Positions 32,570 through 61,584 are shown, counted from the first letter of the stretch. The stretch: 64,000 nt of DNA from an uncultured Verrucomicrobiota bacterium (GCA_964582645.1 CAZOTB010000002.1:12777-76776); one strand, 5' to 3'. The notes: generated by a model not told the origin, from the sequence alone. Numbers and translations: made by a program.

Positions 32570-32853
32570 AGATGGCTCCTTTCGTTATGAGTCGGTTTAT
32601 CCTCGGGCACATACATTCTATCCGAGAACCGGGACTTCGCAAAGCCATTTTTGTTCCGACGCGGCGACGGACGCGTGTCGGCGGGGGCGCGAACTGTCGC
32701 GCTTGCGCGCCATCAGGCGTATTTCCTTGAAAACCATGCGCCGGCCCAATATCACTTGCCGCCGTCGCGGGCGGGCAGATTTTGCTCACGCAGCGCAACT
32801 TTAACCAGCGGACTGGCAGAGATTGCCCGTCCCACTCACGAGGGAGAATTGAC

Positions 32854-34044: not shown

Positions 34045-34485
34045 TCACGCGGCTTGTTCGTTCAATGGGTCTATCCACTGCAGATCGTGAAAGCGCGCGA
34101 ATCCGCTGTCGGCGCTTGCCAGGGTTGCTTCCGCCTCGATGGCAACCGCCGCGATGAACGCATCCGTGATATCGTTGCCCGCCAGGCGAAGGTCCCGGCA
34201 GAGGCGGATGAATGTTTCCCGATGCCCCGGCGCGGTGCGGACTTCGGTCACGAGGGGGCAAGCCCTGATGGCGTTCAAGAAACTGAGCGATTCTTCCAGG
34301 CTCGAAGGCTGGGCAAACGCCCGGGGATTCGTCGTGATCCGGAGGAACGCCAGTTCGGTGAACTCATGCAAACCCAGCGGCTCTCGTTCTGCGAGCTTTT
34401 TCTCCACCCACCGCTTCGCCTTGGCGTGCTGGACGAGGTCTCGGCGGAAAGCGTAGATCAACACATTGGCGTCGAGCAGTAGCAT
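34045..34485 (-). CDS. vapC: PIN-domain toxin VapC
   Basis: MLLLDANVLIYAF...D...D acidic PIN residues. Paired with the upstream RHH antitoxin. Confidence 0.8.
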   Translation of the reverse strand: MLLLDANVLIYAFRRDLVQHAKAKRWVEKKLAEREPLGLHEFTELAFLRITTNPRAFAQPSSLEESLSFLNAIRACPLVTEVRTAPGHRETFIRLCRDLRLAGNDITDAFIAAVAIEAEATLASADSGFARFHDLQWIDPLNEQAA

Positions 34486-34532: not shown

Positions 34533-34808
34533 TCATTTGCGGTTGTTCAGGAGCCTGGCGGCTTCCGAGTCTTCCGCGGTCTCGCGGGCGTGCCGCAAAT
34601 CCCGAACCCCTCGTGCGAACCCGCCCTTGGCACGGCTCACCGGCAGCTTGACCCTGCGCACCCGCTGGCGCGTCCCGTTGCCGGAGCGTCCCCCCAGATA
34701 CTGGCGCAGGGCATCCTCAATATAGTGGTGGAGAGTCACGCCCTTCTTTGCCGCCTCCGCTTTGGCCTGGCGCATGATACGATCATCGAACCGCAACGTA
34801 GTTTGCAT
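34533..34808 (-). CDS. vapB: VapB-family antitoxin (ribbon-helix-helix)
   Basis: MQTTLRFDDRIMRQAKAEAAKKGVTL... is typical of RHH antitoxins. Immediately upstream of vapC. Confidence 0.65.
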   Translation of the reverse strand: MQTTLRFDDRIMRQAKAEAAKKGVTLHHYIEDALRQYLGGRSGNGTRQRVRRVKLPVSRAKGGFARGVRDLRHARETAEDSEAARLLNNRK

Positions 34809-35585: not shown

Positions 35586-36236
35586 TTGCACACTCTCGGC
35601 CAAACAAGGGAAGGCGAATCACATGCGCCGAACGATCACGCGATTGACTGGATCCCGGTTGAGCGCCAGCAGGAAAAAGCACTCCATGGCCTCGTCCGAC
35701 TCGATTGGAAAGGACACCGCTTCTTGATCGCCACTGACTGTGCCTTCAGCGACGACGCCATGGATTCCCTCGCCACCCACGACCTGCGGGCGGAGGTGCT
35801 CGTCGTCCCAGGACGACTCGGACCGTCAGATCGTCCGGCTCAAGCCAGGTACCACGACCTGCTCCGAGCGTTGATCCCCGCCGCAAACCCGGAACTCATC
35901 GTCCTGTGCGACGGTGACCCGTCCCTCTTTTCCGCCACACTCGCGGTTTGCCGGACCGCGTGCCAAGCCCCCGTGCTCTCCACCCGGCTGACGGGTGCCC
36001 TGACCTTCAGCTTGACGCCGGACCGCACACTGGTCATCAGCCCCTATCACCCGAACAGCAAACCCGTTCGGCTCTCGCCGCGCCGGTCACCTCACGACTC
36101 TTTACAACCTTCAGCCCTCGACATTAAACCCCGCCACAGTGCCGATCGCCCTGTAAACAGCCCGTTTCTCGGTCCGGTACTCACGACCCGAAACGCAGCC
36201 TCAGAACAACACGGCGGGACGCATCCAGAGGAATAG
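35586..36236 (+). pseudogene. degenerate ComEC/Rec2-like MBL-fold C-terminal remnant (TTG start in track)
   Basis: The pattern GHRFLIATDCAFSDDAMDSLATHDLRAEVLVVPGRL...ELIVLCDGDPSLF aligns to the end of the ComEC MBL domain (LltGDie..E..L....advLkvpHHGS...aviS.G..N.yghPh). The metal-binding His residues are lost (HHGS -> PGRL) and the N-terminal MBL motifs are absent. Confidence 0.3.
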
Positions 36237-36238
36237 CC

Positions 36239-37075
36239 ATGACATGTAATCATTCAAGTGGAGGTTTCTTCGGAAGAATGAAGGATAAAGTTGTTGGTGG
36301 ATATGAAGGAATTAAGAATAGATTGTTAGGAGATGGTGTATTTGATTTGGAGTATGTTGGACAAGAAAGATCTGGATTACCAGGTATTAATTATGCTGGT
36401 AATAAAGCATTTACGCTGATTGAATTACTTGTTGTTACTGGAATTATTGCTATTTTAGCTGCGATGACTTTGCCTGCTTTGAGTTCTGCTAAAGCTGCCG
36501 GGAAAAGAGCATCATGCATTAATAATTTGAATCAAATTGGAAAAGCCATGACGATGTATGCTGGAGATAATAAAGATTTTCTACCTCCAACTGGGACTCT
36601 CATGAATGATGTAACTTCAGATTGGCAGCTTAGAACTCCTTTAGGCACAAATTTTAATGCGGGCATGGTTATAGCAAATGCAGGCACAACAATCTCGACT
36701 GGAAATATTGCTAGTTATAAATCGTTTGCTTGTCCCGATGCCAGTTATTTTACACTTAAGAAATTAGATGATGATTGGTCAAATCCAAGCGGAGTACCAG
36801 AAAGTTCTTATTTGTATAGAAGTAAAATGCATGGAAGACTTGAAAAGCTTGGTGATCTAAATGGTCAAGAACCAAATAATCTTATTATGACGGACTTTAA
36901 CAAATATTATGGTAGTCCAAATGAGAATCATCGAGGGAAGTTAGTAAACGTTTTATTTGCTGATGGACATGTTGCAACAGCAAATAATATAAGTAATGAA
37001 TTGGGTATTTATGTTCCGGCTCGTTTATCAAATTATTGGAATATTCTCAAGGTAAAATTTCCTGGAGGAATTTAA
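36239..37075 (+). CDS. prepilin-type N-terminal cleavage/methylation domain protein, DUF1559 (H-X9-DG) family, in a low-GC island
   Basis: [45 protein letters not shown] is the PVC-lineage prepilin/DUF1559 N-terminus. [12 protein letters not shown] looks like the H-X9-DG motif. The gene is about 35% GC against a roughly 62% GC background. An unusual 57-aa leader precedes the FTLIE motif. Confidence 0.8.
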
Positions 37076-37324
37076 CTATTTTATAAACTTTTAAATAGAT
37101 TATTTTCTTCGATTACTTATGAGAAAAGGTTGTTTGTTAATGAGAGGGATGTGTTAGTTGTCGTAGCCGCGTGGGGTGAGAGCAGCTTCTCATGCAGAAA
37201 TGTCGGGCTTGGTGCATACCTCCGATCATTGGTGCCATTCGAGTAATTCGTGGCTACAGTCTGCTCCATGACCTCCCCATCACGATCCTTGTGAATCGGC
37301 TTCAATAGGATTAGAGTATGCCCG

Positions 37325-42036: not shown

Positions 42037-42118
42037 GAATCGAGGCTGCCACCACCGGCTCTTCTTACGCACCTTTTACAAGCTTTGCGTTTGCAGTTTT
42101 CAAAGGAACTGGCACAAT

Positions 42119-44482
42119 ATGCCGCCAAGGATGAGTAAACGACTTTGGATGGACATGGTTCGCCGCTGCCTCGCCGCATTCTTGTGCGTCGTGCTCGTGG
42201 CGCCGGTTTCCGTTCCCGGCCAGGATACGCCCAAGATTGAGGGGCCGACTCTGCGTCCGGCTGCCACCGATCTGCCGCCCGCACCGCCGCCGGCGACCGT
42301 TCCCACCAAGACCGGCATGCGCGTTTCGTCGAACCCCGATGAGAAACCCAGCCTGACCGTCCGCTGGGAAAGCGCGCCGGCCGCGGCTGCATTGCAGAGA
42401 TACTCCGACCTCACCGGGCGCACCGTGATCCAGAACGCCGCGCTCTCGGGCGTGGTTTCACTGGACACCAAGACCATGCTCACCACCAACGAGATGCTCC
42501 TCGCCATCGAGAGCGTGTTGTTCGCCAACGGCATCTCGCTGACACCGATGGGCGACAAGTTTGTGAAAGCCGCCGCCAACCAGGCCATCGCGCGCGAGGG
42601 CATCGCCATTGCCGGGGCGGACGCGGAGTTTCCCGAGGGCGACCGCATCACGGCGACGGTGATCCCGTTGCAGTACCTGGATGTGGGCGACGCGTCCATC
42701 GTGCAAAGCCTGTCGCAGTTCATCCATCAACCCGGAGGCACGATCCTGCCGTTGACGCGCTCGAACAGTCTGCTGATCATTGACACCACGCTCATCGTGA
42801 AACGGTTGCAGGAGATTCTCGAGCGCCTCGATCAGAAGGTCGAGAACCGCATTCAGACTTACTATCGTCCTTTGACCAACGCAGAGGCGTCGAAGGTCGC
42901 CGCGACGATCCAGGCGTTGATCACGGGATCGGCGCCGGCGACAGGGGGCGCTCCCCGACCTCCGCCCCGGCCAGGCCAGCCAGCCACAGTGGCGGCAGGT
43001 CCTACCGAGGAGTCCATCGTAGCCGGCAAGGTCATCATCCAGGCGGACGAGCGCACGAACACGCTCATCATTTTGACCCGACCATCGAACCTCGAATTCC
43101 TCGAAGGCATCATCAGCGCGCTCGATGCGAAGGTCGAACCCGAGATTCGCTTCAAGAAATTCAAGCTCGAACACGCGCGCGCGGAGGATGCCGCCGATAT
43201 CTTGCTGTCGCTGACGGGCAGCGGCAGCCAACCGACGATCCAACGCCGCGCCTCGACCACCCAGCGTGCCGACCGCAACCGGCTCGGACGCACGAGCTAC
43301 GGCTCGAGTGCCCGCGACCGCACACAGACGGGAGCGCAACAGCCGCAGCCGCAGTTGCCGCCCATCGCGCGCCAACCGACCACGCCCACCGGGACCACCG
43401 CGACCCAACCCGGGCAGGGTGTGGAGAGGCCGGATTTCGTGTTGAGCGAACGAGCGCGCGTGATCGCCGATCCCCGGCAAGGCTCGATCCTTGTGTTGGG
43501 CACGGCCAGCGATCTGGAACTGGTCGAGATGATCATCCCGGAAATTGACCTGGCCCTGGCGCAGGTCATGATCGAGTCCATCATCGTCGAGGTCACGCTC
43601 GACAACAACGCCGAGTTCGGCGTGAACATCCTCCAGCGCGAGTGGGAAAAGGGCAGCAACAAGGGCGGCGGCGCCTCCCTGCCATCGGTAGTTGCCACCA
43701 ACGCGCTGCAGAAACTTGCGTTCCTGCGCGACCCGCAACAGTTTGCCGCCTCGGGTCTGGCGGGTCTTGGGGGGCTTACCTATTTTCTCGACCTCGGCGG
43801 CCTCGATCTCGATGTCATCGTGCGCGCCGTGGCGGGTTCGTCCAACTTCAAGGTGCTGCAGCGGCCATTGCTCCAATCGTCGCAGAACGAGCCCGCGCAC
43901 ATCTTCGTGGGCGAGACGCGCCCAATCATCACCGCCACACAAACCAGTTTCACCGGTGACGATGCGCTGCGCTCCACCATCGAACAGTTCGACATCGGTG
44001 TCACCCTTGATGTGACTCCCAACATCACGCCCGGTGGATTGGTGGAACTCGAGGTCGAACAGACCGTCGAGGACGTCTCCGGCGAAGTGCGGGTGGACAA
44101 CAACCTGCAACCGATCGTCTCCCGTCGCGAGTTGACCTCCCTGGTGAGCGTACGGGACCGGGGCGTCGTCGCGCTCGGCGGTCTCATCAAGAACGGCAAG
44201 ACGAAAACGGAGAGCAAGGTGCCGATTCTGGGCGATATCCCCCTCCTCAGCTACGCCTTCAAGCAGACCTCGTGGAAGGATTCCCGTATCGAATTGATTG
44301 TGTTCCTGCGGCCCACCGTGCTGCGCAGCGCCGATGAAGCCATGAAGGAAGCGCAGAAGTTGAGGAACAAATTCAAGGGACTCGACAACATTCCGAAACA
44401 GGACGTGCCGGCTCTGCCTGAAGAACCCGGTCCTCCCGAGAAGAAACCCTGGTACGCGCCGTTGCAGCCGCCGCCGTCCTGA
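42119..44482 (+). CDS. secretin (GspD/PilQ family outer-membrane channel)
   Basis: ATG at 42119 followed by a signal peptide. N-domains and the C-terminal secretin domain (…VVALGGLIKNGKTKTESKVPILGDIPLLSYAFKQTSWKDSRIELIVFLRPTVL). Confidence 0.85.
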   Translation: MPPRMSKRLWMDMVRRCLAAFLCVVLVAPVSVPGQDTPKIEGPTLRPAATDLPPAPPPATVPTKTGMRVSSNPDEKPSLTVRWESAPAAAALQRYSDLTGRTVIQNAALSGVVSLDTKTMLTTNEMLLAIESVLFANGISLTPMGDKFVKAAANQAIAREGIAIAGADAEFPEGDRITATVIPLQYLDVGDASIVQSLSQFIHQPGGTILPLTRSNSLLIIDTTLIVKRLQEILERLDQKVENRIQTYYRPLTNAEASKVAATIQALITGSAPATGGAPRPPPRPGQPATVAAGPTEESIVAGKVIIQADERTNTLIILTRPSNLEFLEGIISALDAKVEPEIRFKKFKLEHARAEDAADILLSLTGSGSQPTIQRRASTTQRADRNRLGRTSYGSSARDRTQTGAQQPQPQLPPIARQPTTPTGTTATQPGQGVERPDFVLSERARVIADPRQGSILVLGTASDLELVEMIIPEIDLALAQVMIESIIVEVTLDNNAEFGVNILQREWEKGSNKGGGASLPSVVATNALQKLAFLRDPQQFAASGLAGLGGLTYFLDLGGLDLDVIVRAVAGSSNFKVLQRPLLQSSQNEPAHIFVGETRPIITATQTSFTGDDALRSTIEQFDIGVTLDVTPNITPGGLVELEVEQTVEDVSGEVRVDNNLQPIVSRRELTSLVSVRDRGVVALGGLIKNGKTKTESKVPILGDIPLLSYAFKQTSWKDSRIELIVFLRPTVLRSADEAMKEAQKLRNKFKGLDNIPKQDVPALPEEPGPPEKKPWYAPLQPPPS

Positions 44483-44551
44483 GCCGCGTGGGGGGCGACG
44501 CGATGTGGCCAACGCCACTTCCTGCTCTCCCGGCGATGGCGATTCCATCCG

Positions 44552-45151
44552 CTATCGGATCACCACATCGTCGGATGACCACATCTTCTGGTCGGGGCCG
44601 GCGGAGCGGATCTCGGTCTGGTTGGCAGAAAGCTGATGGAAGAAATACGGCGTACCCCAGACGTCCACCAACTCACCCTTGTCATTGATTCGGTTCCCGT
44701 CGGCGATCGAGAATCTCACATGCTTTGGGTTGTCGCCGTTGAGCGCGCGCGCGATCTCAGGGTTCGAGCCGACCGGGTTGCCGCCGTACATCGCGTTGTA
44801 TTGGCGGAACGTCGTGCGCAGGCTGTCCAGCGCAACCGTCGCGGGAGTGTGGGCTTCGAGGGGAGCCGGTGAGGGAGAAACGCCGGGGGTGCTGGTGGAA
44901 GCCGTTGCCGCCGGGAGGGCGGCCGCTACAACGTTGGTTGTCTCGACCGGCGGGGTTGCAACCCTGCCGCCGAAACGACCGCCGGTATTGGTGACAGCCG
45001 GACTGTTTTCGTCGTGAGACTGCGAGACGGGCTGGGACCGTGCGCTTCGCGAGGCGGGCTTCAGATGCGTTCCAAACCAATCGGCGCTCCACCAGAGGAA
45101 GGCGGAAATTGCGATCAGGATGAAGACCAGCAACAGCAACCGCGTCTTCAT
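44552..45151 (-). CDS. membrane-anchored protein with GspG-like pseudopilin C-terminal domain
   Basis: N-terminal TM helix LLLLVFILIAISAFLWW, no prepilin cleavage motif. C-terminal ...GELVDVWGTPYFFH...SAGPD... resembles the GspG globular domain (DPWGnpY...SlGaDg). Confidence 0.5.
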   Translation of the reverse strand: MKTRLLLLVFILIAISAFLWWSADWFGTHLKPASRSARSQPVSQSHDENSPAVTNTGGRFGGRVATPPVETTNVVAAALPAATASTSTPGVSPSPAPLEAHTPATVALDSLRTTFRQYNAMYGGNPVGSNPEIARALNGDNPKHVRFSIADGNRINDKGELVDVWGTPYFFHQLSANQTEIRSAGPDQKMWSSDDVVIR

Positions 45152-45154
45152 CGC

Positions 45155-46594
45155 TCAGAGCATGAAGCCGAGATCAGGATGGGCGAAACGGCCGATGTTC
45201 GGGAACACGGTGGCCATGTCCGAGCTGCCGACGCCGAACCATTTCGCGAGTGTCGCCGAGTATTCGTCCACGGAAGTGGTGGGAATCCAACGACCCAAGC
45301 CGGTGTCGTCGGGGCCGTTGACGGTGAGCGCGGGAAGAATTCCGAACGTGCGCCGACCATTGACGCCGCCGCCCACGATGATGTGGTGGCTGCCCCAACC
45401 ATGGTCGCTACCCTGGCCATTGGTCGGGAACGTCCTTCCGAAATCGCTCGCGGTGAACGCCGTGACCTTCGAAGGCAACGCGGCGTCCTCTCCTGCCTGC
45501 GCCGCGAGTTGCTCCATGGCGCGCTGGAAGGCGAAGAGGCTCTGACTCAACTCGCCGATCAGATTCGCGTGGCCGCCGACGGTGGTGTCGTTCGGATTCG
45601 CGGCGTTGCCCACCTGTCCCGTGTGCGTGTCGTAGCCACTGACCGAGACGAAGAAAATCTGCCGCTTCATGTTCATCGCCGAGCGTGCCGCGATGAGGCG
45701 GGCAACCATTTTAAGCTGGTTGCCGAGCGTGGTGTTCGGAAATGGCACGGTCCAGTACGTAGCCGACGCCGTGGGCGCGATCGCGGTGTTCAACACGTCT
45801 GCGGTGTTGATCGAATGGGCAGCGACGGTGGCGTAGGCCTGCTCCTGCATGTTCGGGTAGTTGAGCCCGAGGATGTCCTTTACCGCCTGCAAGCGCGGGC
45901 CCGTCACCCCGGTCAAGGACACCGCGCCCGTCGTGGAGACGGAGTATTGCGACACGATGTTGCCGACCTCGAATGTGTTCGCGCCCGCGAGCGTGACGGT
46001 GAGCGAGATTTTTCCGCCGTTGCTCGTGTTGAGCGTATCGAGCAGGTCGGCGCAACGTCCGCCCCACCCCGTCAGTGGCGGTTGATCGGGGATGGATGTC
46101 TGCCATTGTGTGACCTGGTCGGCGTGGGAAAACAACTGCGGCGGCTTGGCGACGCTCCCTGCCTGGTACTGGGCGCGGGTGATCGGATAGACGAGCGTGC
46201 CGGTGTTGAACAGGACCGCTAGTTTGTTCTCGGCGAAGAGCGTTTGCAGGCCGGTGCAACTGGGATGCAACCCATAGGTGTGCCCGTCATTATTGATCGG
46301 TGTAATCGGGAGCAGGCTGGATTGTGGCAGCGCGAGGTTCTGACGGATGGCCGCGTAGTTTTGGTATTCGGTGTCGCCGGCGGGCACGATCAGGTTGTTC
46401 GAGTCGTTGCCGCCGGCAAGGAAGACGCACACCAGCGCCTTGTAATCGGTGATTGTGCCCTGCGCCATCGCCGCGTTGATGAAACGCAGGTCCCGCAACA
46501 TGCTGGTGACCGCCCACGTGCCGACGGCGGCGCAGGAAGCCTTGCGGAGAAAATCGCGGCGGGTGATGGGCTGGGCGTAACGTTTGCGGCTCAT
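45155..46594 (-). CDS. DUF1501 domain protein (Tat signal, sulfatase-like)
   Basis: Twin-arginine signal TRRDFLRKA and DUF1501 pattern. Immediately downstream of the DUF1800 protein. Confidence 0.85.
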   Translation of the reverse strand: MSRKRYAQPITRRDFLRKASCAAVGTWAVTSMLRDLRFINAAMAQGTITDYKALVCVFLAGGNDSNNLIVPAGDTEYQNYAAIRQNLALPQSSLLPITPINNDGHTYGLHPSCTGLQTLFAENKLAVLFNTGTLVYPITRAQYQAGSVAKPPQLFSHADQVTQWQTSIPDQPPLTGWGGRCADLLDTLNTSNGGKISLTVTLAGANTFEVGNIVSQYSVSTTGAVSLTGVTGPRLQAVKDILGLNYPNMQEQAYATVAAHSINTADVLNTAIAPTASATYWTVPFPNTTLGNQLKMVARLIAARSAMNMKRQIFFVSVSGYDTHTGQVGNAANPNDTTVGGHANLIGELSQSLFAFQRAMEQLAAQAGEDAALPSKVTAFTASDFGRTFPTNGQGSDHGWGSHHIIVGGGVNGRRTFGILPALTVNGPDDTGLGRWIPTTSVDEYSATLAKWFGVGSSDMATVFPNIGRFAHPDLGFML

Positions 46595-46598
46595 AAGA

Positions 46599-49500
46599 TT
46601 ACTTCTGGATGGTGAAGTCCGGCGAGGTGACCATGAGGTGGATGGTGGCGCGAACCCGGTCGCGTTGCTGGCTGGCGGTTGGAGGAGTCGAATACGGGAA
46701 GTTGGTCGAGGTGACGTACGTCACAATCGTGTTGGACGCGCCTGTGGACAACTGACCCGCCAGCAGCAGGGAGTTCAGCGTGCCCACCAGGCTCGGGACG
46801 CCGGTGTTGCTGGTGTAATTGGTGGTCATGTACGGACCAATGTCGAGGACGATCGAGCCGTTGCCGTTCTTAAAGCTGTTCAACCCATTGGTGTTCGATC
46901 CCTGGCTGTTGATGATCGCCCCCGCGAGGAAGTTGTTTTGCAGCGCCACACCGGTGTCGGACGTGAGCTGGAACTCGGGCGTGGTCAATCCCGCCGAGGC
47001 GAGAAGCCCCGGGAACTTGTAGTCGGGGAAGAAGTAGTTGAACACCGTCGGCGACCGCAACGGCGTCTGGGTCAGGTCGAGGTCGGTCACGCCCATGTTC
47101 CACGTGCTCGACTGGACCGTGACGTTGCCCGATCGCACCAGCGGCGGCCCGGCTAGCGGCGCGACCACGTGGCTGTTCTGGTTTTGATTGGCGACCGCGC
47201 CGACGACGATGGTGAAGTGATCCTCATCCACGACCGACGCCACCGCATACTGGCCGTCCGCCGCCGTGCCGGACATGAAATCAATATAGACCTGGTCGCC
47301 CGGGTTCAGCCCGTGGTTGCCGGCCGTGCTGACGGTGATGATGTTTGTGTTCGGCTGCGAGTAGCCGCCCTTGTAGAACGCGAGCAGGCAATTGCCCGAA
47401 AGCGTCGCCGCGTCCGGGGTCGTCACGCTGAAAGCCGAATTCGACGGCACGCTCACCACTTCGTACACGCCGTTGGAGGCGCCGCCCGTGGTGAACGTGA
47501 TGTGCAGCCGGTTGCTGACGGCGAGTCCGTGGCCCGCCGAGTTGATCGAGATGAAGCCCCCGGCCTGGTTGTACGCGCCCGTCAACACGCCCGTCGCGTT
47601 GACCGTGAAAGTGTTCACGCCCGTCACCGTCACCGGGTACGCGGTGCTCGTCGGTACCGGAGTTCCCGAATCAAACTGGAGGAAAATATTGTTGCCCGTG
47701 GCCAGCCGGTGGGCGTTGGTGGTCGTCACCGTGATCGCGCGCCCGCCGTTCTGGCTGTAGGTGCCGCCATTCGGCTGCGGCGACGGGAACGCCCGCGCCA
47801 CGCCCGTCGCGCGCAGTAACGGCTCGCGCTGCTTGCCGAACGTCGAGCGGGTGATCTGCGAACTGCTCCGCGCTTCGTAATCGAGCAGGATTGCCTTGAT
47901 CACCGCCGCCATGTCGCCGCGAACGCCGGCGCCGTTGTCGTGGAACACCTTCACCACCCGGTAGAGATAGTCCCGGCTCGGGTGGCTCGTCACGAGTCGC
48001 TGGATGAGTTGCCGGCAGACGAATGGGCCGACGTTTGGATGGTTAAAGATCGCGTCCAGGCCGGTCTCGAGTTCTTGCAAACCATAGTTGTCGTACTCCG
48101 CGTTTGTGGGGTCGGCCTGGCTTCCCGCCGCAGCGGGCATGACCACGTTGTCGAGGATGCGTTTGGTGCCGAGTTCGTGGCGGGTGGGAACGAGCTTCAT
48201 CGGGTTGATGTAATCGGCAGCCGGGCTCCAGTTCGTCGGCAGCCGTCCATTGCTCTGGTTCGGCTGGTTGTAGTTCCAGCCCGTGAACAGCCGGGAGTAA
48301 CCGATCACGACATTCTGATCGTAGGTCGGCACCAGGTTGTCCTGCGAGTTGAGCACCAGCGTGCCGTCCGGCCACATGCGGTAGAGGCCGACCGAGAAGA
48401 GCTGCAGAATCTCGCGCGCGTAGTTTTCGTTCGGGATGCGTCCTGTGGCGAGGTCGCCCTTCTCGTTGCGGCGCATGTCGAGATACAACCCCATCGCGGG
48501 CGTGAGCGTGACCGCTTCGAGGATTTCGCGGAAGTTGCCGAAGGCGTTGTCGAGCAGCGTGTCGTAGAAGGCGGAGAGGGCGCGTCCGTTGTTGTCGAGT
48601 ACGCCGATCTCGGAGACGACCAGGATCTCGCTCAACGCAAACGCCACTCGCTGGCGCAATTGATCGGGCGCGGTGACAGACTGTTGCCACCACGAGTTGA
48701 AGGTCAGGTTGCGCGGATAGGGCGCGGTCGGATCGGAACTGAGGTTCGCCAGCACGAACGGCAGGTGATGCGACACGGGCCTGGCAAACTGATCGTCAAT
48801 CCACGCTTCGTATCCCATCGCCTGCACGGCCGCGATGTCGCTCTGGCTCGGTCCGAACGTCGCCTGCATGAGGAACCGCGCTGCGGCGTTGGCGTTGGCG
48901 TGGTCGTCCGTCCAGGCAGGCGGATCGGGCGGCGGCGAAAACGTTTGCGAGCCATTGGCGAGCGTGTAGTTGCCGCGAATCTCGCCGGCAGGGTAGTTGA
49001 CGGTGTGGATGTTGATGAAGGCCTTGCCCTGCTTGATGACCTCGAGGACGTCCGCCGCCGAGAGCGTTCCTACGGCTGCGATGGGCCAGATGTAACTGCC
49101 GTCCGCCTCCGGCGTGGCATCATCAATGTCGAAGATGATCTGGCTCGGGTGGTTCAGGTACGGGTCGGAGTGGATGTGGGCTGCCGTGTATGGGGAAGTG
49201 AGATTGGTGTAGGCGAACGAGAAGGTCGCCTGGGATTCATCGGCGCTCAGTCGCAACGTGGACGTGCCGATGCCCTGCGATTGGGCGGCACCCTGGGCGA
49301 GCATGGTGGTCGCGTAAAGCGTACCGGGGATGGAACTCGGCGGCGGTTCGACGTACGGCGACAACACGAACCCGGGCACGACCTCGCTCGGTCCCGTGCC
49401 GGCCTGGTCGGGACGCAGCCATCCCACGGCGACATTGTCGTTCGTGCCCGTGCCGGCCTTGTGCAGGACCTCGATGTAGTAGCGCTGCCCGGCCACCAGC

Positions 49501-51428
49501 GCGAGCCACGGTGATTTCTGGTTGGGTTGATTGGTGAAACTCAACGGGGGCGTGCCGCTCGTGACGGAGGCGCGCTTCACTTTGTTGACCGGCTCGTGGT
49601 CATTGGAAATCCAAAGCTCCGCGGTATCGCTCGCGGCGATCCAGAAGTAGTAGTTGCCAGTTACCGGCGCAGTGAGATAGCCACGAATGCGCGCGCCGTA
49701 GTCGTCGCCGAAGTTGGCGCTCGCGAGATTGGTGAGCGTGCCGGCGCCGCTCGGTAGCGAATCGACCGGGATAGCGCTGATCGCAGTGCCGCCGATGCCC
49801 GTCCAGTAATCCCGCGTGATCGAGCCGCCCGTATCCTGAATCGTCAGATTCAGCACGGCGTAGCTCACGCCAAGCGCGTTGGAAGTGGTGAGCATGACCT
49901 GATAGGCTCCCGCGGCGGTGGGCGTGCCGCTGATGAGGCCGGTAGCGGGATTGAACGTCAAACCCGGCGGCAGGTTATTCACGTCAAACCCGAGCGGCAG
50001 GTTGCTGCCCGTGACCAGATAGCTGAACGCTCCGCCGACGAGTCCGACCGCGCTCGTGGGGCTGGTGATCACGGCGGGCGCGGCAGCGGTCGGATAGAGG
50101 CGCTCCAGGGGAATGGGTTGTTTCGTCTGGCTCTCGCTGTACCAGTAGAGTTGCACCGAGGCGCTGCCGGTGTTCTCGAAATACTCGAGCTTGATGTCGT
50201 AGCGGACGCCCGCCTCCAACGGGATCTGGTTTGTCCAATCAGTCGTGCCCTGCGTCTGCCATTGATCAATCAGCAACTGACCGTTGACCCAGAGCTTCAC
50301 ACCGTCGCTGCTGCGCGTGCCGAAGATGTACGTCTCGCTGTGCTCGGGTTGTACCTGGCCGGTCCAGCGAATGGAGAATGTGTTCGTACCCATCGAAGCG
50401 ATGGGCGCGTTGGTGCCCCAATCGAAATTGATCGTCGGGTCCACCTGTGTCAGCATCAGCCCCGTGAAATTCGCGGCATTCGTGTACGTCGCGCTGGCGT
50501 TATCATAGTACTGCCCCGTGAGGCCGGTGCCGGTGGGCGTGGACGAGTCGGCGATCACCAGCGAGGCGCTGCTCGGCGCATCCACGATGTAACCGCTGTT
50601 GGTGGCCAGTGTGAGCGTGACCAACTCCGATGCCTCGACCGCCGCATCCGCCATCGGCGTGACGGCGATGGTGGCATTCGTCACGTCGGGCGGGAGCATG
50701 ACCGAGCCGCTCAGCGGTGAAAAATCAACGCCGTTGGTCGCGGTGCCGCCGAGCGTGTAGAGCACCGTCAGTGTGTTCGTGCCGCCGTTGCGACGGATCT
50801 CGAAGATGCCCGGTTGCGGCCCATCCTCGGTGGCGTTCGGATTGAGCGTCGCGACCGAAAGAACGTTCGGGACCGTGATGAACTTGCCGAATGATGTCAC
50901 CCCATTCGTGATCGTCCCGGCCACGCTGACAGTACCCGTGCCCCAACCGCCGCCCGCAGGAAGCATGGCGGTGATCTGTTCCCGGTTGACGACCACGACG
51001 TTGGAGAGCGTGACGTTAATCGGCGACCCGATGGTGATGAGGGGCGGCGTGTTCGTCGGGAAACCAATGCCGAACACCGTCACCGGCATCGGCACGGGGT
51101 TGGTGCGCGCGAAGGGAAAGATGGCAGTGGTCACGTGCGCCCGCAAACCGACCATGACCTGGTTGATCACCAACGAGTCGGCGCCCGAGACGGTGCCATT
51201 GTCGTTGACGTCGCCGTTCTCGAATCCCGTGACGGCGAAGATCGGGTGGGTGTTGCTCCTGAGACCGACCATGACCTGGTTGATGAGCAGCGAGTCGGCG
51301 CCCGTGACATGGAAATCGCCGTTGACGTCACCCGGCGGGTAAAACTCGTTGGTCTGGGCAGATGTACTCCACGCCAACGCAGAGCAAAAAAATAATGCGC
51401 CGAGGATCCGTGTTGTCATCATGGCCAT
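46599..51428 (-). CDS. giant multidomain DUF1800 protein (dockerin-like repeats, Calx-beta, PA14 x2, cadherin-like Ig, CHRD, DUF1800, T/G/N-rich C-terminal region)
   Basis: ATG at complement 51426-51428 (MAMMTTRILGALFFCSALAWSTSA signal peptide). Domains recognised by motif: DVNGDFHVTGADSLLINQ (dockerin-type), PA14 GLTGQYYDN...FSIRWTGQ, CHRD ...AAHIHSDP...NIHT..YPAGEIRGN, and DUF1800 ...FLMQATFGPS.... Confidence 0.85.
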   Translation of the reverse strand: MAMMTTRILGALFFCSALAWSTSAQTNEFYPPGDVNGDFHVTGADSLLINQVMVGLRSNTHPIFAVTGFENGDVNDNGTVSGADSLVINQVMVGLRAHVTTAIFPFARTNPVPMPVTVFGIGFPTNTPPLITIGSPINVTLSNVVVVNREQITAMLPAGGGWGTGTVSVAGTITNGVTSFGKFITVPNVLSVATLNPNATEDGPQPGIFEIRRNGGTNTLTVLYTLGGTATNGVDFSPLSGSVMLPPDVTNATIAVTPMADAAVEASELVTLTLATNSGYIVDAPSSASLVIADSSTPTGTGLTGQYYDNASATYTNAANFTGLMLTQVDPTINFDWGTNAPIASMGTNTFSIRWTGQVQPEHSETYIFGTRSSDGVKLWVNGQLLIDQWQTQGTTDWTNQIPLEAGVRYDIKLEYFENTGSASVQLYWYSESQTKQPIPLERLYPTAAAPAVITSPTSAVGLVGGAFSYLVTGSNLPLGFDVNNLPPGLTFNPATGLISGTPTAAGAYQVMLTTSNALGVSYAVLNLTIQDTGGSITRDYWTGIGGTAISAIPVDSLPSGAGTLTNLASANFGDDYGARIRGYLTAPVTGNYYFWIAASDTAELWISNDHEPVNKVKRASVTSGTPPLSFTNQPNQKSPWLALVAGQRYYIEVLHKAGTGTNDNVAVGWLRPDQAGTGPSEVVPGFVLSPYVEPPPSSIPGTLYATTMLAQGAAQSQGIGTSTLRLSADESQATFSFAYTNLTSPYTAAHIHSDPYLNHPSQIIFDIDDATPEADGSYIWPIAAVGTLSAADVLEVIKQGKAFINIHTVNYPAGEIRGNYTLANGSQTFSPPPDPPAWTDDHANANAAARFLMQATFGPSQSDIAAVQAMGYEAWIDDQFARPVSHHLPFVLANLSSDPTAPYPRNLTFNSWWQQSVTAPDQLRQRVAFALSEILVVSEIGVLDNNGRALSAFYDTLLDNAFGNFREILEAVTLTPAMGLYLDMRRNEKGDLATGRIPNENYAREILQLFSVGLYRMWPDGTLVLNSQDNLVPTYDQNVVIGYSRLFTGWNYNQPNQSNGRLPTNWSPAADYINPMKLVPTRHELGTKRILDNVVMPAAAGSQADPTNAEYDNYGLQELETGLDAIFNHPNVGPFVCRQLIQRLVTSHPSRDYLYRVVKVFHDNGAGVRGDMAAVIKAILLDYEARSSSQITRSTFGKQREPLLRATGVARAFPSPQPNGGTYSQNGGRAITVTTTNAHRLATGNNIFLQFDSGTPVPTSTAYPVTVTGVNTFTVNATGVLTGAYNQAGGFISINSAGHGLAVSNRLHITFTTGGASNGVYEVVSVPSNSAFSVTTPDAATLSGNCLLAFYKGGYSQPNTNIITVSTAGNHGLNPGDQVYIDFMSGTAADGQYAVASVVDEDHFTIVVGAVANQNQNSHVVAPLAGPPLVRSGNVTVQSSTWNMGVTDLDLTQTPLRSPTVFNYFFPDYKFPGLLASAGLTTPEFQLTSDTGVALQNNFLAGAIINSQGSNTNGLNSFKNGNGSIVLDIGPYMTTNYTSNTGVPSLVGTLNSLLLAGQLSTGASNTIVTYVTSTNFPYSTPPTASQQRDRVRATIHLMVTSPDFTIQK

Positions 51429-51794
51429 GTTCGAGTGAATCGGGTTGTCGTCGGAACGCGCCGTTTGTGTTCTGAACACCGGCCGCGCCATTTGGTTGCG
51501 GACAAGAGCGGCAAAGCGTCCGAGGTGCCACGCTCTGCTGAACCGCCATTCGGCAAGGATATCCGCGATCAACACACACCCTCCCCCGCGCGTTCAGGAC
51601 AAATCATCGTCGTGCCTGTGAAAACGGCTGCATCGTAGGGGAAAAAAGCGCGTCTTGTCAACGCGCCAGCGCCCTGCCCTTTTCGATTTCCATTCCACCT
51701 GCGGCGGATACGATACTGCCGTGTCTCGACACGCCCTGATCGGGGACCGGATCTGGGATGGGCACCCTGCCGGACGCTCGAACAGCTTGCGTCT

Positions 51795-51850
51795 GGAGTT
51801 CACGCTTCAGCTTGTCTGGGTTCGACTGCTGCACCAAGCTGAAGTGTGAG
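51795..51850. repeat. hairpin element tcacgcttcagcttg ... caagctgaagtgtga (15-bp stem with one G-T pair, 20-nt loop)
   Basis: Seen in the intergenic region upstream of panC. It shares the gcttcagcttg core with the element at 35384-35480. Confidence 0.5.
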
Positions 51851-51945
51851 CTCCAAACGAGAGCAAATGATGCGCTGAACAGGGACTCTTGGCCGCCCTA
51901 CAAACTCTTGTCATCCTTCCCGTCATCCAGTTTAGTTGTCTCGCC

Positions 51946-52788
51946 ATGGAACTGGTGACCTCGCCGAGCGCGATGCAACAGATCGCCCTTCGTCTGCGAC
52001 GCGAAGGGAAACGCATCGGCCTCGTGCCCACCATGGGCTACCTCCACGAAGGTCATCTGAGCCTCGTGCGCGAAGTGCGGAAACGCTGCAATGTCACCAT
52101 CGTCAGCATCTACGTGAACCCGACGCAGTTCGCGCCCAACGAGGACCTCAAAAAGTATCCGCGCGACCTGGAACGAGACAAGTCGCTCTGCGCCGCCGAG
52201 AACGTGGACTACCTGTTCGTCCCGACCGACGCCGACATGTACCCGGCTCACTACTCCACCTATGTCGTCGAGGAATCGCTCTCCCGTCATCTGGAAGGGG
52301 CGACGCGCCCGGCTCATTTTCGCGGTGTATGCACGGTGGTGGCGAAGCTGTTTCACATCGCGCTGCCCGACGTCGCCATCTTCGGGCAGAAGGATGCGCA
52401 GCAGGCGCTCGTAATCCAACGCATGGTGCGCGACCTGAATTTTCCCATCGAGATCCTCATCGCGCCGATCGTGCGCGAAGCCGACGGGCTCGCCATGAGC
52501 AGCCGCAATGCGTACCTTTCTCCCGCCGAACGCAAACAAGCCGGCACCCTCCGCGCGGCTTTGGATTGGGCGCTCGATGCGTTCCGCAAAGGCGAGAAGG
52601 AATCGCTGGCCTTGCGAAAGGGGATGCTCAAAATCATCCTCTACGCGCCGGATGCGAAGTTGGATTACATCGAGTTTGTGAACCCGGACACATTCGAGAT
52701 CGTGCCGACGGTGAAGAAGGGAACGCGCATCGTGATGGCGGTGTGGATCGGAAAGACGCGGCTGATTGACAACGCGGTGGTGGAATGA
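51946..52788 (+). CDS. panC: pantoate--beta-alanine ligase
   Basis: ATG at 51946. PTMGYLHEGHLSL (HIGH-like) PanC signature. Confidence 0.9.
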   Translation: MELVTSPSAMQQIALRLRREGKRIGLVPTMGYLHEGHLSLVREVRKRCNVTIVSIYVNPTQFAPNEDLKKYPRDLERDKSLCAAENVDYLFVPTDADMYPAHYSTYVVEESLSRHLEGATRPAHFRGVCTVVAKLFHIALPDVAIFGQKDAQQALVIQRMVRDLNFPIEILIAPIVREADGLAMSSRNAYLSPAERKQAGTLRAALDWALDAFRKGEKESLALRKGMLKIILYAPDAKLDYIEFVNPDTFEIVPTVKKGTRIVMAVWIGKTRLIDNAVVE

Positions 52789-57552: not shown

Positions 57553-58474
57553 GGCAGCTTTTCGATGTGGATGAACTGATCGGGGCGCGGCTTCCAAAGA
57601 TTGGGGAGATCCGACGCGCCGGGCTTGTCCACACAGGGCTTGAGTTTGTCGTCGGGAAGGGTGTGCAGGACGACGAGGCGTTCGCCTTTCTTCTCGTCGG
57701 GAACCCCGGTGACGGCAAAGGTCTGTTCCGTCGCTTCCGCCAGTTCGTGAAGTTTCTCCTCGATCTTGATGTGCGGCACCATCTCGCCGCCGATCTTGCT
57801 GAACCGAGTGAGACGGTCGGTGATCTGCAAGAAGCCATCCTCGTCGAGCGTGGCAACGTCACCGGTGCTGTACCAGCCATCGCGCAACACCTCGGCGGTT
57901 TTGTCGGGACGACCGAGGTGGCCTTTTATCACATTCGGACCGTGCACCCAAACGAATGAAAGAACGGCAGGATGCCGAGCAGGCAATCGCGCTTCTCGAA
58001 CGCGAAGACCTGGCCGAGCTGTTCGATGTTCGAAGCGATGTTGTAGTGCGTCAGCATCACGCCCTTGGGATCGCCGGTGCTGCCGCTGGAAAAGATGATG
58101 GTGGCGAGATCATCGAGCGGGTTGTGTGATGCGGGGAGTGTGGAGCGTGGAGCGTGGCCGACGGCCCGCTCCAACAATGGGGTGGGCAACAGCCAGGCCT
58201 TGCACGCCGAGGAGAACATCTCGCCGAGGGATGGCTTGGCGGCGATTTCCTCCAACAGAATTGTCTGCCCCGGAACCTTGAGCTTGAGTTTGTCGAGGAA
58301 CGCCTTCGAGGTGATGATCGTCTGCAGGTTGCACTGCCGGGCGCACGACGCGAGGACTTCTTCGTGGGCGGTGTAGTTGAGGTTGACGGGAACTTTGCCC
58401 ATCAGGAACGCGGCGTGATTGACGAGGGCGCCGCCCACGGACGGCGGCAGGAGAATGCCCCCAAAATCCGACAA
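57480..58474 (-). pseudogene. remnant of an AMP-binding (acyl-CoA/acyl-ACP synthetase, Aas-like) gene in two frames with an internal deletion
   Basis: Track ORFs 57929..58474 (…IIFSSGSTGDPKGVMLTH…LPFFHSFG) and 57480..57986 (…VIKGHLGRPDKTAEVLRDGWYSTGDVATLDEDGFLQITDRL…) overlap in different frames. About 200 aa of the central domain are missing. Confidence 0.45.
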
Positions 58475-58555
58475 CCAATCACCTATTACCCGCTGCTGAA
58501 GCCGCGATCACCTTTTCGTGTTCCAACGCTCTCACGCGACTTGCGTCCGCGAAAT

Positions 58556-60022
58556 CTACTCTCTCACCGTCACATTGTTCTTCGGCAGCAACGTTCCCTC
58601 GGAGCGCCACAACTCGGCCAGCGACTGGTTGTAATCCGCGATGGCGCGCATCTCCCTCGAGCGCGCCTCGCGCAAGTCGCGCTGGTGCTGGAGCACGGTG
58701 TAACTGGTGCTCGTGCCGGCCTCGAGTTTCTTCCGCTCGGCGTTCAACGTCTCCTCCGCCAATCGTCGCGAGATGCCCGTGGCTTCGACGCGCTTGAGGT
58801 TGGTCTGCACTTGCGCTGCGGCATTGTCCACCTGGAGAATGATCGTCTGCTCGATGCGCTTGAGTTGGAGGATCGCCTGTTCGAGCCGCAACTTGGCGGC
58901 GCGATAGGCGCCGCGTGCGGACGCGTTGCCGAGCGGAAACTCCACCACCACGCCGACAAACCATTGCGGGAACTCGGACGAGGTGAACGCGGTGTCGAGC
59001 GCGTCTCCGCGTGTGCCGCTCAGCCCCGACTGGCCGTATGTGCCGGTGACGTCCAACTGGGGAAAGAGCTGGTTGTGGTCAAACCGAAGCTGGATGCGGT
59101 TCTTCTCGATCACCTGTTTCTGCTGCAGATACTCGGGCCGGTTCTGGATGCCGCGCGCGACGCTTTCGTCCACGTTGACCGTGACGGGCTCGACGCTCGG
59201 AGTGTCCACGGGAATGATCCGCGTTTGGCGTTGCGAGGCGACGTCGGAACTGATCAGCCGCAGCAACAGCAAGGTCTGCGTCTTGATCGTCTGTTTGGCT
59301 TCGATGACGGCGACCTCCTGCGCGGCGACGCCGGACTCGGCCTGGGTGACGTCAATCGGCGACATCATTCCGACTTCGAGGCGCTTCTGGTTCTCGGCGA
59401 GCAAAGCGCGGGTCAGTTCGAGCGTATCCTCCTGTACTTTGAGGTCCTCGATGGCGAACACCAGATCGTAGTAGGCCTTGTACACTTCGTTGATCGTATC
59501 GGCCACCTTGGTCACAAACCCTTCGTAGGCGATGTTCTTGTTCTTGCGGGCGATGTGGAGGTTGGCGAGGTTGACGCCGAGCCCAAAATTCTTCAGCAGC
59601 GGCTGCGTCAACCCGACCGTCCAGACACTGCGGTGTTGATTCTCGAATTTGGGCGAGGTTTCCTGGAGCGTTCCGTTGTAGGAGAAATCATACTCGGTAC
59701 CCGTGGGCAGTTTTCCCGTCAGACTCGGTGTGAAGATGCTGTTGCGGGTTTCGTTGGCGGCACTGTTGGTTTGCACAACGAACAACGGCGTCTGGACTTC
59801 GGTCCAGTTGGCGTTGAGTTGCAGGCTCGGATCGAAATCGCCGTACGTGCCCAGGATGTTGGCGTCCTCGATTTTGGGATTCACGCGCTCGATGGCCACG
59901 TCGAGGTTGTTGGCGAGTGCGCGCTCGATGCATTCACGAAGAGTCAGTGAGATCGCTTCCTCCTGCGCTGCGTGCGCGATCTGAGTCAAGGCCACCATCA
60001 GTGCAACAAACCACCGTTTCAT
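58556..60022 (-). CDS. TolC-family outer-membrane efflux protein
   Basis: Signal peptide plus two TolC repeats (…LSLTLRECIERALANNLDV…). 488 aa. Confidence 0.85.
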   Translation of the reverse strand: MKRWFVALMVALTQIAHAAQEEAISLTLRECIERALANNLDVAIERVNPKIEDANILGTYGDFDPSLQLNANWTEVQTPLFVVQTNSAANETRNSIFTPSLTGKLPTGTEYDFSYNGTLQETSPKFENQHRSVWTVGLTQPLLKNFGLGVNLANLHIARKNKNIAYEGFVTKVADTINEVYKAYYDLVFAIEDLKVQEDTLELTRALLAENQKRLEVGMMSPIDVTQAESGVAAQEVAVIEAKQTIKTQTLLLLRLISSDVASQRQTRIIPVDTPSVEPVTVNVDESVARGIQNRPEYLQQKQVIEKNRIQLRFDHNQLFPQLDVTGTYGQSGLSGTRGDALDTAFTSSEFPQWFVGVVVEFPLGNASARGAYRAAKLRLEQAILQLKRIEQTIILQVDNAAAQVQTNLKRVEATGISRRLAEETLNAERKKLEAGTSTSYTVLQHQRDLREARSREMRAIADYNQSLAELWRSEGTLLPKNNVTVRE

Positions 60023-60165: not shown

Positions 60166-60633
60166 CTCCTCCTTCACATCCACCACGTGCAACTTCAGAA
60201 CGCGCGACAGTTCCGCAGCCGCCACCGACACCAGTGCGTTTGACCCACCGGCGCCAAACCAGACTCGCTCTTGTTGCAGCACCAGCGGATCGCAGTAGAT
60301 CGGGACCGATTCGTCCTCGAAAAACGGGTTCACTCCGCCCACCGCAAAGCCGGTCCATGCTTCGATCTGCTCCGGCCGGGCCGTGGGCAGTTTCTTGCAG
60401 CCGGTGAGTGCTTTGAGCTTTTTCATCGAGACCCGGTTCGGCCCCGGGCAGAGAACCAGGATTGGTTTGTCGTCCGCGACGAAGCAGAGCGTCTTGATGA
60501 CCTGTGCCACGGGGATGCCGAGTTGCGCGGCGGACTCACCGGCAGTGTGAGTCGAGTGATCGAACCGCCGCAACTCAAACTGCACGCCGTGCGATTCCAG
60601 GAACGCCCTGACAGATTCCATGTCGCGTTTCAT
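60154..60633 (-). CDS. ybaK: Cys-tRNA(Pro)/Cys-tRNA(Cys) deacylase YbaK-family protein
   Basis: ATG at complement 60631-60633 (MKRDMESVRAFLESHGV...). YbaK/ProX deacylase pattern (…KTLCFVADDKPILVLCPG…). The track ORF is over-extended. Confidence 0.75.
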   Translation of the reverse strand: MKRDMESVRAFLESHGVQFELRRFDHSTHTAGESAAQLGIPVAQVIKTLCFVADDKPILVLCPGPNRVSMKKLKALTGCKKLPTARPEQIEAWTGFAVGGVNPFFEDESVPIYCDPLVLQQERVWFGAGGSNALVSVAAAELSRVLKLHVVDVKEEGSV

Positions 60634-60657
60634 GGTCAACTCAGTTCCGAAGATGCC

Positions 60658-60780
60658 AGGGCGCGAATGCCCCCGTCGTACGCCGTTTCGCGACGGGGGT
60701 TTCGCGCCGTGCCGGCAGGGCGAGGGGCCGCGGCGCGAAACCTCCGCCCCAAACAGCAGGGGCGGAGGCATTCGCGCCCT
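60658..60780. other. nested multi-hairpin element (candidate structured RNA or composite palindromic repeat)
   Basis: The outer 14-bp inverted repeat agggcgcgaatgcc / ggcattcgcgccct encloses three inner hairpins: cccccgtcg/cgacggggg, ggtttcgcgccg/cggcgcgaaacc and cctccgcccc/ggggcggagg. All were read directly from the sequence. Confidence 0.4.
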
Positions 60781-60910
60781 GCAGCAGCGACGACAACCAT
60801 TTCACGTTCGTCAAAGGTCATTGAATGCGCTGGCCGCCTTGTAGCAGCCGGGGGGTCGGGTCGGAAGTTTTTTAGTGCAAATCCGAGCGCGATTGTTACG
60901 ATGCGCCCAC

Positions 60911-61228
60911 ATGTTACCCGCAACCGACTACTCTACATTGCATCGGGTACTGGTGCTCATCGGCGCCGTCGCGGTGCTCGCGAGCGTCATCGGCAACCTC
61001 GCCTACGCGCGCCGCAACGTCACCTTAAACATCGAACTCGTCGCCGCCGCGAACAAGCTCCAGGAAGTCAACGCCACCCAGCAACAGGTCAACGCCATCG
61101 CCCAGGATCTGATCAGCTTCGCGCCGCGTTTCCCGTGGCTGGTTCCGTATCTCCAGAAATACGGATTGGTCCATGTGCAGCAGGGACCGTCCTCCGCGCC
61201 GGGCGCGGCCTCGAAGGGAGTACCATGA
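60911..61228 (+). CDS. hypothetical small membrane protein
   Basis: ATG at 60911 (MLPATDYSTLHRVLVLIGAVAVLASVIG: one TM helix). The stop overlaps the next start (ATGA). Confidence 0.45.
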   Translation: MLPATDYSTLHRVLVLIGAVAVLASVIGNLAYARRNVTLNIELVAAANKLQEVNATQQQVNAIAQDLISFAPRFPWLVPYLQKYGLVHVQQGPSSAPGAASKGVP

Positions 61229-61584
61229 GCGAACCCGATACCACGGAACACGAGTACGGCACCGAGCCGACCGCAGCCGAGGTGGACCCGATCCTGGAAT
61301 TGCGGCTGATCCTGTACGGCTTGGGATTGCTCGTGTTGCTCATGAGCCTGTCGCTGAACCTCTACATCCGAAAACAGAACCGGAACATCGAGACTCAAGT
61401 CAACCAGCTGCGTGCTCAGATTCAGCAGATCGAGGGAAGCCCATTGTACCAACAGAACAAGAACGGCATGCAGAACCTCCTCGAGGAGTTGAAGAAAGAA
61501 GCCAAGGATCGCGCGGAGGCAGCGGAGTTGCTCAAGCGGTACGGCATCGAAGTGCAGAGCCGGCCGCCACTGCCGGACCGATAA
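61225..61584 (+). CDS. hypothetical small membrane protein with coiled-coil
   Basis: ATG at 61225 with a GAAGGGAG Shine-Dalgarno. TM helix LRLILYGLGLLVLLMSLSL followed by a coiled-coil. The 437-aa track ORF 60271..61584 is rejected. Confidence 0.5.
   Translation: MSEPDTTEHEYGTEPTAAEVDPILELRLILYGLGLLVLLMSLSLNLYIRKQNRNIETQVNQLRAQIQQIEGSPLYQQNKNGMQNLLEELKKEAKDRAEAAELLKRYGIEVQSRPPLPDR

Follow-up and report, generated by a model that had tools for sequence, protein, structure and literature searches.

A three-gene DUF1800/DUF1501 cassette with lectin-type modules and a possible role in glycan processing in an uncultured Verrucomicrobiota bacterium

Background

Genes for DUF1800 (PF08811) and DUF1501 (PF07394) proteins are found as neighbours in Proteobacteria, in the PVC (Planctomycetes, Verrucomicrobia, Chlamydiae) bacteria and in others. 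In this canonical pair the DUF1800 gene comes first and its product is exported by the general secretory (Sec) route, and the DUF1501 product takes the twin-arginine translocation (Tat) export route. Such pairs are widespread, and DUF1501 is among the most expanded PVC families lacking an assigned function. The two families travel with bacterial chitin-synthase operons (PMC5122149). Planctomycetes DUF1501 partners also bear carbohydrate-binding domains (PMC3542564).

The locus described here lies in 64,000 nucleotides of DNA from an uncultured Verrucomicrobiota bacterium (GCA_964582645.1 CAZOTB010000002.1:12777-76776). This whole stretch is called the window, and all coordinates are counted from its first letter. 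An earlier note on this DNA had reported a DUF1501/DUF1800 pair at 45155-51428. This is borne out, as both open reading frames (ORFs) are on the minus strand and both profiles score above their Pfam cut-offs. The note took the pair to be the whole unit, but there is a third gene which it missed. The three genes are co-directional and run from the large DUF1800 gene through the DUF1501 gene to the third gene:

46599..51428, minus strand: large DUF1800 gene, ATG at 51428, 1609 amino acids, within the ORF 46599..51575
45155..46594, minus strand: DUF1501 gene, 479 amino acids
44552..45151, minus strand: third conserved gene, 199 amino acids

There are 4 nucleotides between the DUF1800 stop codon and the DUF1501 gene, and 3 between the DUF1501 stop and the third gene.

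The cassette has the gene order and export routes of the canonical pair, covers the full DUF1800 profile and has identical DUF1501 motif residues. To this it adds an array of modules of about 830 amino acids, an insert of about 232 amino acids between DUF1800 profile positions 311 and 323, and the third gene. The gene pair is already known. Public data contain many examples of the three-gene form that has both lectin-type modules and the insert, but the searchable literature has no description of it.

The cassette is tentatively read as encoding an envelope complex with esterase or transferase activity that is aimed at a glycan. Catalysis would fall to DUF1501, with DUF1800 as its partner and substrate-recognition scaffold. 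The probability of this is put at roughly 40%.

The third gene

In the third protein, a hydrophobic anchor at the N-terminus is followed by a variable linker rich in Pro and Ala, and then by a C-terminal domain of about 95 amino acids that is conserved and has the motifs GNPVG..., WGTPYFFHQL and EIRSAGPD. None of its 427 homologues has a Pfam domain. With one genome scanned for each GTDB species, at least 581 species-level genomes had relatives of the gene. Going by record titles, the carriers are almost all Verrucomicrobiota and mostly metagenome-assembled genomes, from Limisphaerales/Pedosphaera, Chthoniobacterales and Verrucomicrobiaceae.

Linkage was counted over the loci of 79 species-level genomes that have the third gene. 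Of the 67 loci with enough flanking sequence, 62 have DUF1501 directly upstream of it, and the third gene belongs to the unit with DUF1800 and DUF1501. An insert-bearing DUF1800 core was seen in 59 of 59 loci; for CHRD the count is 48 of 50, and for PA14 it is 49 of 50. No other conserved neighbours were found around the cassette, the commonest downstream family being present in 5 of 59 loci.

A relative with PA14, CHRD and DUF1800 but without the insert (P0210) also has a homologous third gene, with 40% identity over the C-terminal domain. The gene is absent beside a plain DUF1800 pair (L088) and beside a Calx-beta-DUF1800 pair (L089).

Two candidate observations on this gene were rejected. 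The residues WGTPYFFH...SAGPD had suggested a GspG-like pseudopilin, but PF08334 reaches just 12.6 bits against a required 21 (E value 0.14), and does so in two of five members. The protein has no G-F/M-T-L-x-E prepilin motif, and profiles built from 5 and from 62 sequences match no pseudopilin in the PDB. The other candidate was a fusion of DUF1501 and the third gene, as called in one locus (L003, 664 amino acids, 12924-14918). There the TAG stop is intact, and the assembly has frameshift-type indels.

The DUF1501 protein

Pfam scores are set throughout against the curated gathering cut-offs, given in brackets. The DUF1501 profile (PF07394) scores 97.2 bits (cut-off 27). The Tat export proposed earlier for this protein agrees with the signal profile TIGR01409, which reaches its cut-off on TRRDFLRK (residues 10-44, 17.7 bits, cut-off 16.7).

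In a structure model with a mean predicted local distance difference test (pLDDT) score of 73.5, the core has the alpha/beta fold of the alkaline-phosphatase (AP) superfamily. The residues D64, S156-H157-x-D159, D322-x-H324, D397-H398 and H403 do not vary across 95 orthologues or in three DUF1501s of 46-55% identity from other DUF1800 subfamilies. Judging by motif order and predicted structure, this Asp/His/Ser set comes in the order expected for the superfamily, and S156 precedes a helix at 157-165. DUF1501 would then be an AP-superfamily metalloenzyme, with Asp/His ligands like those of nucleotide pyrophosphatase/phosphodiesterase (NPP) and alkaline phosphatase, and with Ser156 as candidate nucleophile. 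The formylglycine sulfatase motif C/S-x-P/A-x-R is absent from the protein, and there is no Pfam Sulfatase match.

The DUF1800 core and its insert

The large protein ends in a DUF1800 domain that is divided in two:

47778..48878, minus strand: N-terminal part of DUF1800, all-helical, residues 851-1217, profile positions 1-311 of 419
47082..47777, minus strand: insert within DUF1800, residues 1218-1449, about 232 amino acids, three tandem beta-barrel repeats of about 55 amino acids
46602..47081, minus strand: C-terminal part of DUF1800, residues 1450-1609, profile positions 323-418

The first part scores 245.4 bits in Pfam (cut-off 26.1, E 1.6e-72). Scanned alone, residues from about 1450 to 1606 match DUF1800 positions 323-418 with an E value of 3e-3, collinear with the first part, and TVFNxFxPxYxxPG and TTPEFQL are invariant motifs of this C-terminal part. 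Residues 835-1609 were modelled with AlphaFold2 (pLDDT 82, predicted template modelling score 0.82); the model is helical, then has the all-beta insert at a pLDDT of about 90, and is then helical again. The helices of the first part are model residues 12-379.

The earlier note had described a T/G/N-rich C-terminal region of about 400 amino acids, which was a mis-parse. Since the DUF1800 profile resumes after the T/G/N-rich region, and since there are modelled helices on both sides, the region is an insertion inside DUF1800 and no appended tail. The supposed 400 amino acids are the insert of about 232, followed by some 160 that form the C-terminal part of DUF1800 itself.

The repeats of the insert span residues 1229-1282, 1289-1340 and 1359-1412, and its composition is 12.5% T, 12.1% G and 9.5% N. 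The insert is 230-260 amino acids long in 116 of 120 listed homologues, and 316-340 in the other four. Its barrels match those of phage endosialidases and a depolymerase, a likeness at the level of the fold only. Against PF12195, the endosialidase beta-barrel family, the insert scores 24.6 bits, which is below the gathering threshold of 35.

No solved structural relative of the DUF1800 core was found. Over 87 diverse clusters, the following polar residues of the core are kept in at least 97%: R925, R927, D956, E1001, N1002, R1005, E1006, D1021, H1084, H1130, R1157, D1183, E1185, R1187, E1202 and E1485. The most conserved motifs are NENYAREIxQLFSxG (residues 1000-1014) and SPTVFNFFxPDYxFPG...TTPEFQL (1459-1488). 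These two are also the stretches of lowest pLDDT in the model (model residues 151-200 and 626-657; the model covers window positions 46602-48926). This may fit a site that is completed by the DUF1501 partner or by a ligand. At residue 1148 the core reads S-x-P-S-R, like a sulfatase motif, but this was put down to chance, the Arg being Pro in plain DUF1800 proteins.

The N-terminal module array

Ahead of DUF1800, the large protein consists of the following:

51357..51428, minus strand: Sec-type signal peptide, residues 1-24, assigned by eye; the protein starts MAMMTTRILGALFFCSALAWSTSAQ
51159..51335, minus strand: two dockerin-type Ca-binding repeats, residues 32-90, Dockerin_1 27.7 bits (cut-off 22.9)
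50829..51131, minus strand: beta-rich segment, residues from about 100 to 200
50544..50804, minus strand: Calx-beta domain, residues 209-295, Pfam 32.5 bits (cut-off 27)
50088..50519, minus strand: first PA14 domain (PA14-1), RsgI3-like, residues from about 304 to 447, Pfam match 313-441
49854..50072, minus strand: He_PIG (cadherin-like Ig) domain, residues 453-525, Pfam 38.1 bits (cut-off 24)
49386..49706, minus strand: second PA14 domain / GLEYA, residues 575-681, PA14 alone 51.5 bits
48969..49286, minus strand: CHRD domain, residues 715-820, Pfam 50.2 bits (cut-off 24.1)

The domain assignments of the earlier note hold: dockerin, Calx-beta, both PA14 domains, the cadherin-like Ig domain, CHRD and DUF1800 all pass their Pfam cut-offs. 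Both PA14 copies (313-441 and 575-681) together reach 157.6 bits (cut-off 24), and GLEYA matches residues 579-661 at 29.4 bits (cut-off 26.2). Residues 100-200 match no Pfam family at E<=10. Homologues of the large protein carry N-terminal signal peptides as well.

The dockerin repeats read DVNGDFHVTGAD and DVNDNGTVSGAD. The duplicated Ca-binding segment is visible and the profile score is above the cut-off, as for a type I dockerin. Among a sample of window ORFs scanned against Pfam, no cohesin partner was matched.

PA14-1 matches PDB entry 6qe7 with an E value of 4e-71, where the one module aligns to both PA14 modules of RsgI3 (147.6 and 96.4 bits). The PA14 dyads of RsgI3 and RsgI4 bind pectin and xylan via a Ca loop (PMC6852018). 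The loop in PA14-1 that is equivalent to CBL2 reads ENTGS, which is nearer the xylan-type NNTGN of RsgI4 than the pectin-type QHVRA (PMC6852018). On the strength of the RsgI3 alignment, the accessory modules are credibly carbohydrate-binding, as the earlier note had it for PA14 and CHRD. None of the evidence points to a substrate.

Distribution

DUF1800 within a giant protein is not exceptional: at least 120 homologues of the large protein, with 51-60% identity and a length of about 1650 amino acids (range 1310-1817), have the same PA14/He_PIG/GLEYA/CHRD/DUF1800 set, and close DUF1800 relatives mostly carry N-terminal binding modules. Where named, the listed homologues are annotated as "DUF1800 family protein" from Verrucomicrobiota.

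What sets the window's copy apart is a variant N-terminus, with dockerin and Calx-beta in place of thrombospondin type 3 (TSP3) repeats. Most listed homologues have bacterial TSP3 repeats there. PF00404 (dockerin) is found in no other of the 120 listed, and Calx-beta in just one besides the window's protein (P0017).

The DUF1800 region matches 8145 clusters in a library at 50% identity. Of these, 117 near neighbours with a complete core were compared, the nearest of their kind. An insert is present in 31, which are proteins of 922-2780 amino acids, and absent from 86, of which 77 are longer than 600 amino acids. The DUF1800 relatives that were sampled have N-terminal PA14/CHRD, Calx-beta or FG-GAP/TSP3 modules. 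In all related loci examined, a DUF1501 gene is directly downstream of DUF1800.

What the cassette may do

If the cassette is a glycan-targeted envelope complex, it could work as follows. The product of the first gene, a predicted Sec substrate, has Ca-binding and lectin-type modules in its N-terminal 830 or so residues, and a complete helical DUF1800 domain interrupted by the three barrels in the C-terminal 760 or so. DUF1501, from the second gene, would cross the membrane folded, through Tat. Either in the periplasm or on the cell surface, the DUF1800 domain would then pair with DUF1501, and DUF1501 would perform ester hydrolysis or transfer of the phosphoryl or sulfuryl type. The PA14, CHRD and barrel modules would keep the complex on a complex polysaccharide substrate, and the small protein from the third gene would tether or assemble it at the membrane.

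The support for a glycan is circumstantial and has three parts: the linkage to chitin synthase (PMC5122149), the DUF1501 partners with carbohydrate-binding domains (PMC3542564), and the exopolysaccharide (EPS) locus of a relative. In that locus (L087:1-4915) the cassette of P0210, which lacks the insert, sits directly behind the EPS genes and is co-oriented with the one for the priming transferase (Bac_transf). The others code for Poly_export, a chain-length kinase (AAA_31), a porin (BBP2_2) and a paralogue of NusG. It is the only locus examined that has a suggestive functional neighbourhood. The earlier note had the pair acting on an extracellular glycan or surface polymer; of this, the lectin-type modules were confirmed, but the word "extracellular" and the substrate were not.

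Several points weigh against this reading. The physical complex of DUF1800 and DUF1501 is inferred from gene linkage alone, and no functional study or solved structure of either family was found in the searchable literature or the PDB. The genes that flank the cassette vary between genomes and indicate no substrate. The catalytic residues of DUF1501 are assigned by motif order and predicted secondary structure on a model of medium quality (pLDDT 73.5), and its fold cannot tell phosphatase, diesterase, sulfatase and phosphotransferase chemistry apart. The DcisD Ca motif of PA14-1 reads S-D here, where RsgI3 and the family consensus have D-D; because of this, the window's copy may bind weakly or differently. 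The large protein had also been called secreted, and the target of the pair extracellular. This was an overstatement, as the Sec signal peptide and the Tat signal of DUF1501 stand, but not a location past the periplasm.

The next most probable reading has no attack on an external glycan. DUF1501 could be a transferase or esterase of phospho-substituents on the cell's own EPS or capsule, acting in the maturation of an envelope polymer much like EptA, BcsG, LtaS and OpgB. The position of P0210 directly behind a co-oriented Bac_transf gene in an EPS export locus would fit this, as would the link to chitin-synthase operons (PMC5122149) and the membrane anchor on the third protein. This role is unlikely, however: just a single locus shows the EPS linkage, there is no conserved neighbour in 59 insert-bearing loci, and DUF1501 lacks the membrane domain that is present in EptA, LtaS and BcsG. 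It is also conceivable, if distinctly less probable, that catalysis lies in the helical DUF1800 domain, as in a glycan lyase or hydrolase of unsolved fold, with DUF1501 as an accessory or a second activity. The polar residues conserved at 97% or more over 87 diverse clusters speak for this, and a core with no solved relative leaves room for a new active site. However, the domain resembles none of the enzyme families found, its conserved motifs have little order when modelled as a monomer, and the strict pairing with an enzyme-like DUF1501 suggests a subunit role.

Scavenging of nutrients such as phosphate or sulfate from organic esters, analogous to the Tat-exported PhoX and PhoD, where the large protein would concentrate polymeric substrates, seems improbable given that no locus examined has adjacent pho-regulon or transporter genes. 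Dockerin, Calx-beta, PA14/GLEYA, He_PIG and, in homologues, TSP3 are typical modules of adhesins, and the large protein might be mainly a surface adhesin or structural protein, leaving DUF1800 and DUF1501 without a glycan role. But the linkage to an enzyme-like, Tat-exported DUF1501 is invariant, and the protein has no cell-surface sorting signal and ends in the conserved DUF1800 terminus, which makes this very unlikely. Electron transfer has been proposed for DUF1501 loci with PSCyt/PSD1 partners in PVC bacteria (PMC3542564), and Tat export implies a cofactor. Here this is almost certainly wrong: none of the three proteins contains CxxCH, the 1609-residue protein has just three Cys, there is no cytochrome or redox Pfam domain, and by its fold DUF1501 belongs with a hydrolase superfamily.

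The glycan-targeted envelope complex can be extended into a bolder and more doubtful proposal, that DUF1800, DUF1501 and a small anchor form a previously unrecognised class of Sec/Tat-assembled glycan-processing envelope machine. Polysaccharide caught by PA14, CHRD and the endosialidase-like barrels would be presented by the helical DUF1800 to the AP-superfamily DUF1501 subunit, which would remove or transfer phospho- or sulfo-substituents. If true, the proposal would also account for the function of the plain DUF1800/DUF1501 pairs, of which there are thousands. By analogy it would cover the DUF1501-PSCyt modules, which are hugely expanded in Planctomycetes and Verrucomicrobia.

The subfamily in any case offers the clearest clues so far: lectin modules on DUF1800, a DUF1501 site like that of NPP and alkaline phosphatase, and a dedicated third gene. 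These turn the pair into a concrete biochemical hypothesis, and provide a starting point for the function of DUF1800/DUF1501.

Gene starts, flanks and the rest of the window

The public gene call for the large protein (P0001) starts at GTG 51575 and has 1658 amino acids, which is 49 residues more (51429-51575). The ATG at 51428 is more likely the start because homologous proteins begin directly with the signal peptide, and the 49 extra residues would precede it. Upstream there is a gap of 460 nucleotides, and then a divergent panC. This gap holds a consensus match:

51632..51661, minus strand: sigma-70-like promoter match TTGACA-18-TACGAT, 10 of 12 consensus positions

Two promoter-type matches were observed where shuffled sequence gives 1.0, so these are consensus matches only. 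No Rfam family was matched in 44300-52000, and there are no further copies of the cassette within the 64-kb window.

Downstream of the third gene lies a convergent secretin gene (about 42100-44482, plus strand). In the other genomes examined, no secretin was found adjoining the cassette. The gene is one of several scattered parts of type II secretion or type IV pilus systems in the window, another being a T2SSE ATPase with an MshEN domain (11694-13403, plus strand).

An island of about 1 kb at 36100-37300 has a guanine-cytosine content of 0.31-0.44, against a background of about 0.61. It contains an ORF (36239..37075, plus strand) that encodes a motif for prepilin N-methylation together with a DUF1559 (SBP_bac_10) domain; this may be recently acquired, or a compositionally odd pseudopilin gene. 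Beside it, 34045..34485 and 34533..34808 on the minus strand look by eye like a putative PIN/VapC-type toxin and small antitoxin. Three ORFs, at 58154-59950 (plus strand, 598 amino acids), 60271-61584 (plus strand, 437) and 31573-32616 (minus strand, 347), have no Pfam match at E<=0.001.

Comparison with known systems

Nearest to the cassette are the insert-free PA14-He_PIG-PA14-CHRD-DUF1800 proteins, of which P0210 (1356 amino acids) is an example. These have the same module order, a DUF1501 partner and a homologous third gene. P0210 differs in having no beta-barrel insert and in its place after an EPS biosynthesis and export cluster.

The DUF1501 modules with PSCyt/PSD1 in Planctomycetes and Verrucomicrobia (PMC3542564, PMC5615132) likewise put a Tat-exported DUF1501 beside a large multidomain Sec protein. 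Like the large protein here, these PSCyt/PSD1 partners often bear carbohydrate-binding domains. In the cassette, however, the partner is DUF1800, with no CxxCH and no PSCyt/PSD1 Pfam match.

To AP-superfamily enzymes (NPP 7mw8, ENPP6 5ege, S1 sulfatases, PafA, EptA/MCR-1), DUF1501 has about 10% identity. Unlike them it has no formylglycine motif C/S-x-P-x-R, is exported by Tat and has an obligate DUF1800 neighbour.

The tandem PA14 sensor modules of the clostridial anti-sigma factors RsgI3 and RsgI4 (6qe7, 6qdi) are the nearest known counterparts of PA14-1, which aligns from end to end; RsgI3 is a polysaccharide sensor of C. thermocellum that senses pectin. The PA14 domains of the cassette form no dyad but are split by an Ig domain, the DcisD motif reads S-D, and the protein is the exported partner of a putative enzyme and not an anti-sigma factor.

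The insert, finally, resembles the barrel of phage endosialidases (PF12195; 4hiz, 1v0e, 3gvk) and of the Klebsiella phage P560 depolymerase (7vul). Here that barrel occurs as three tandem copies inside a helical domain.

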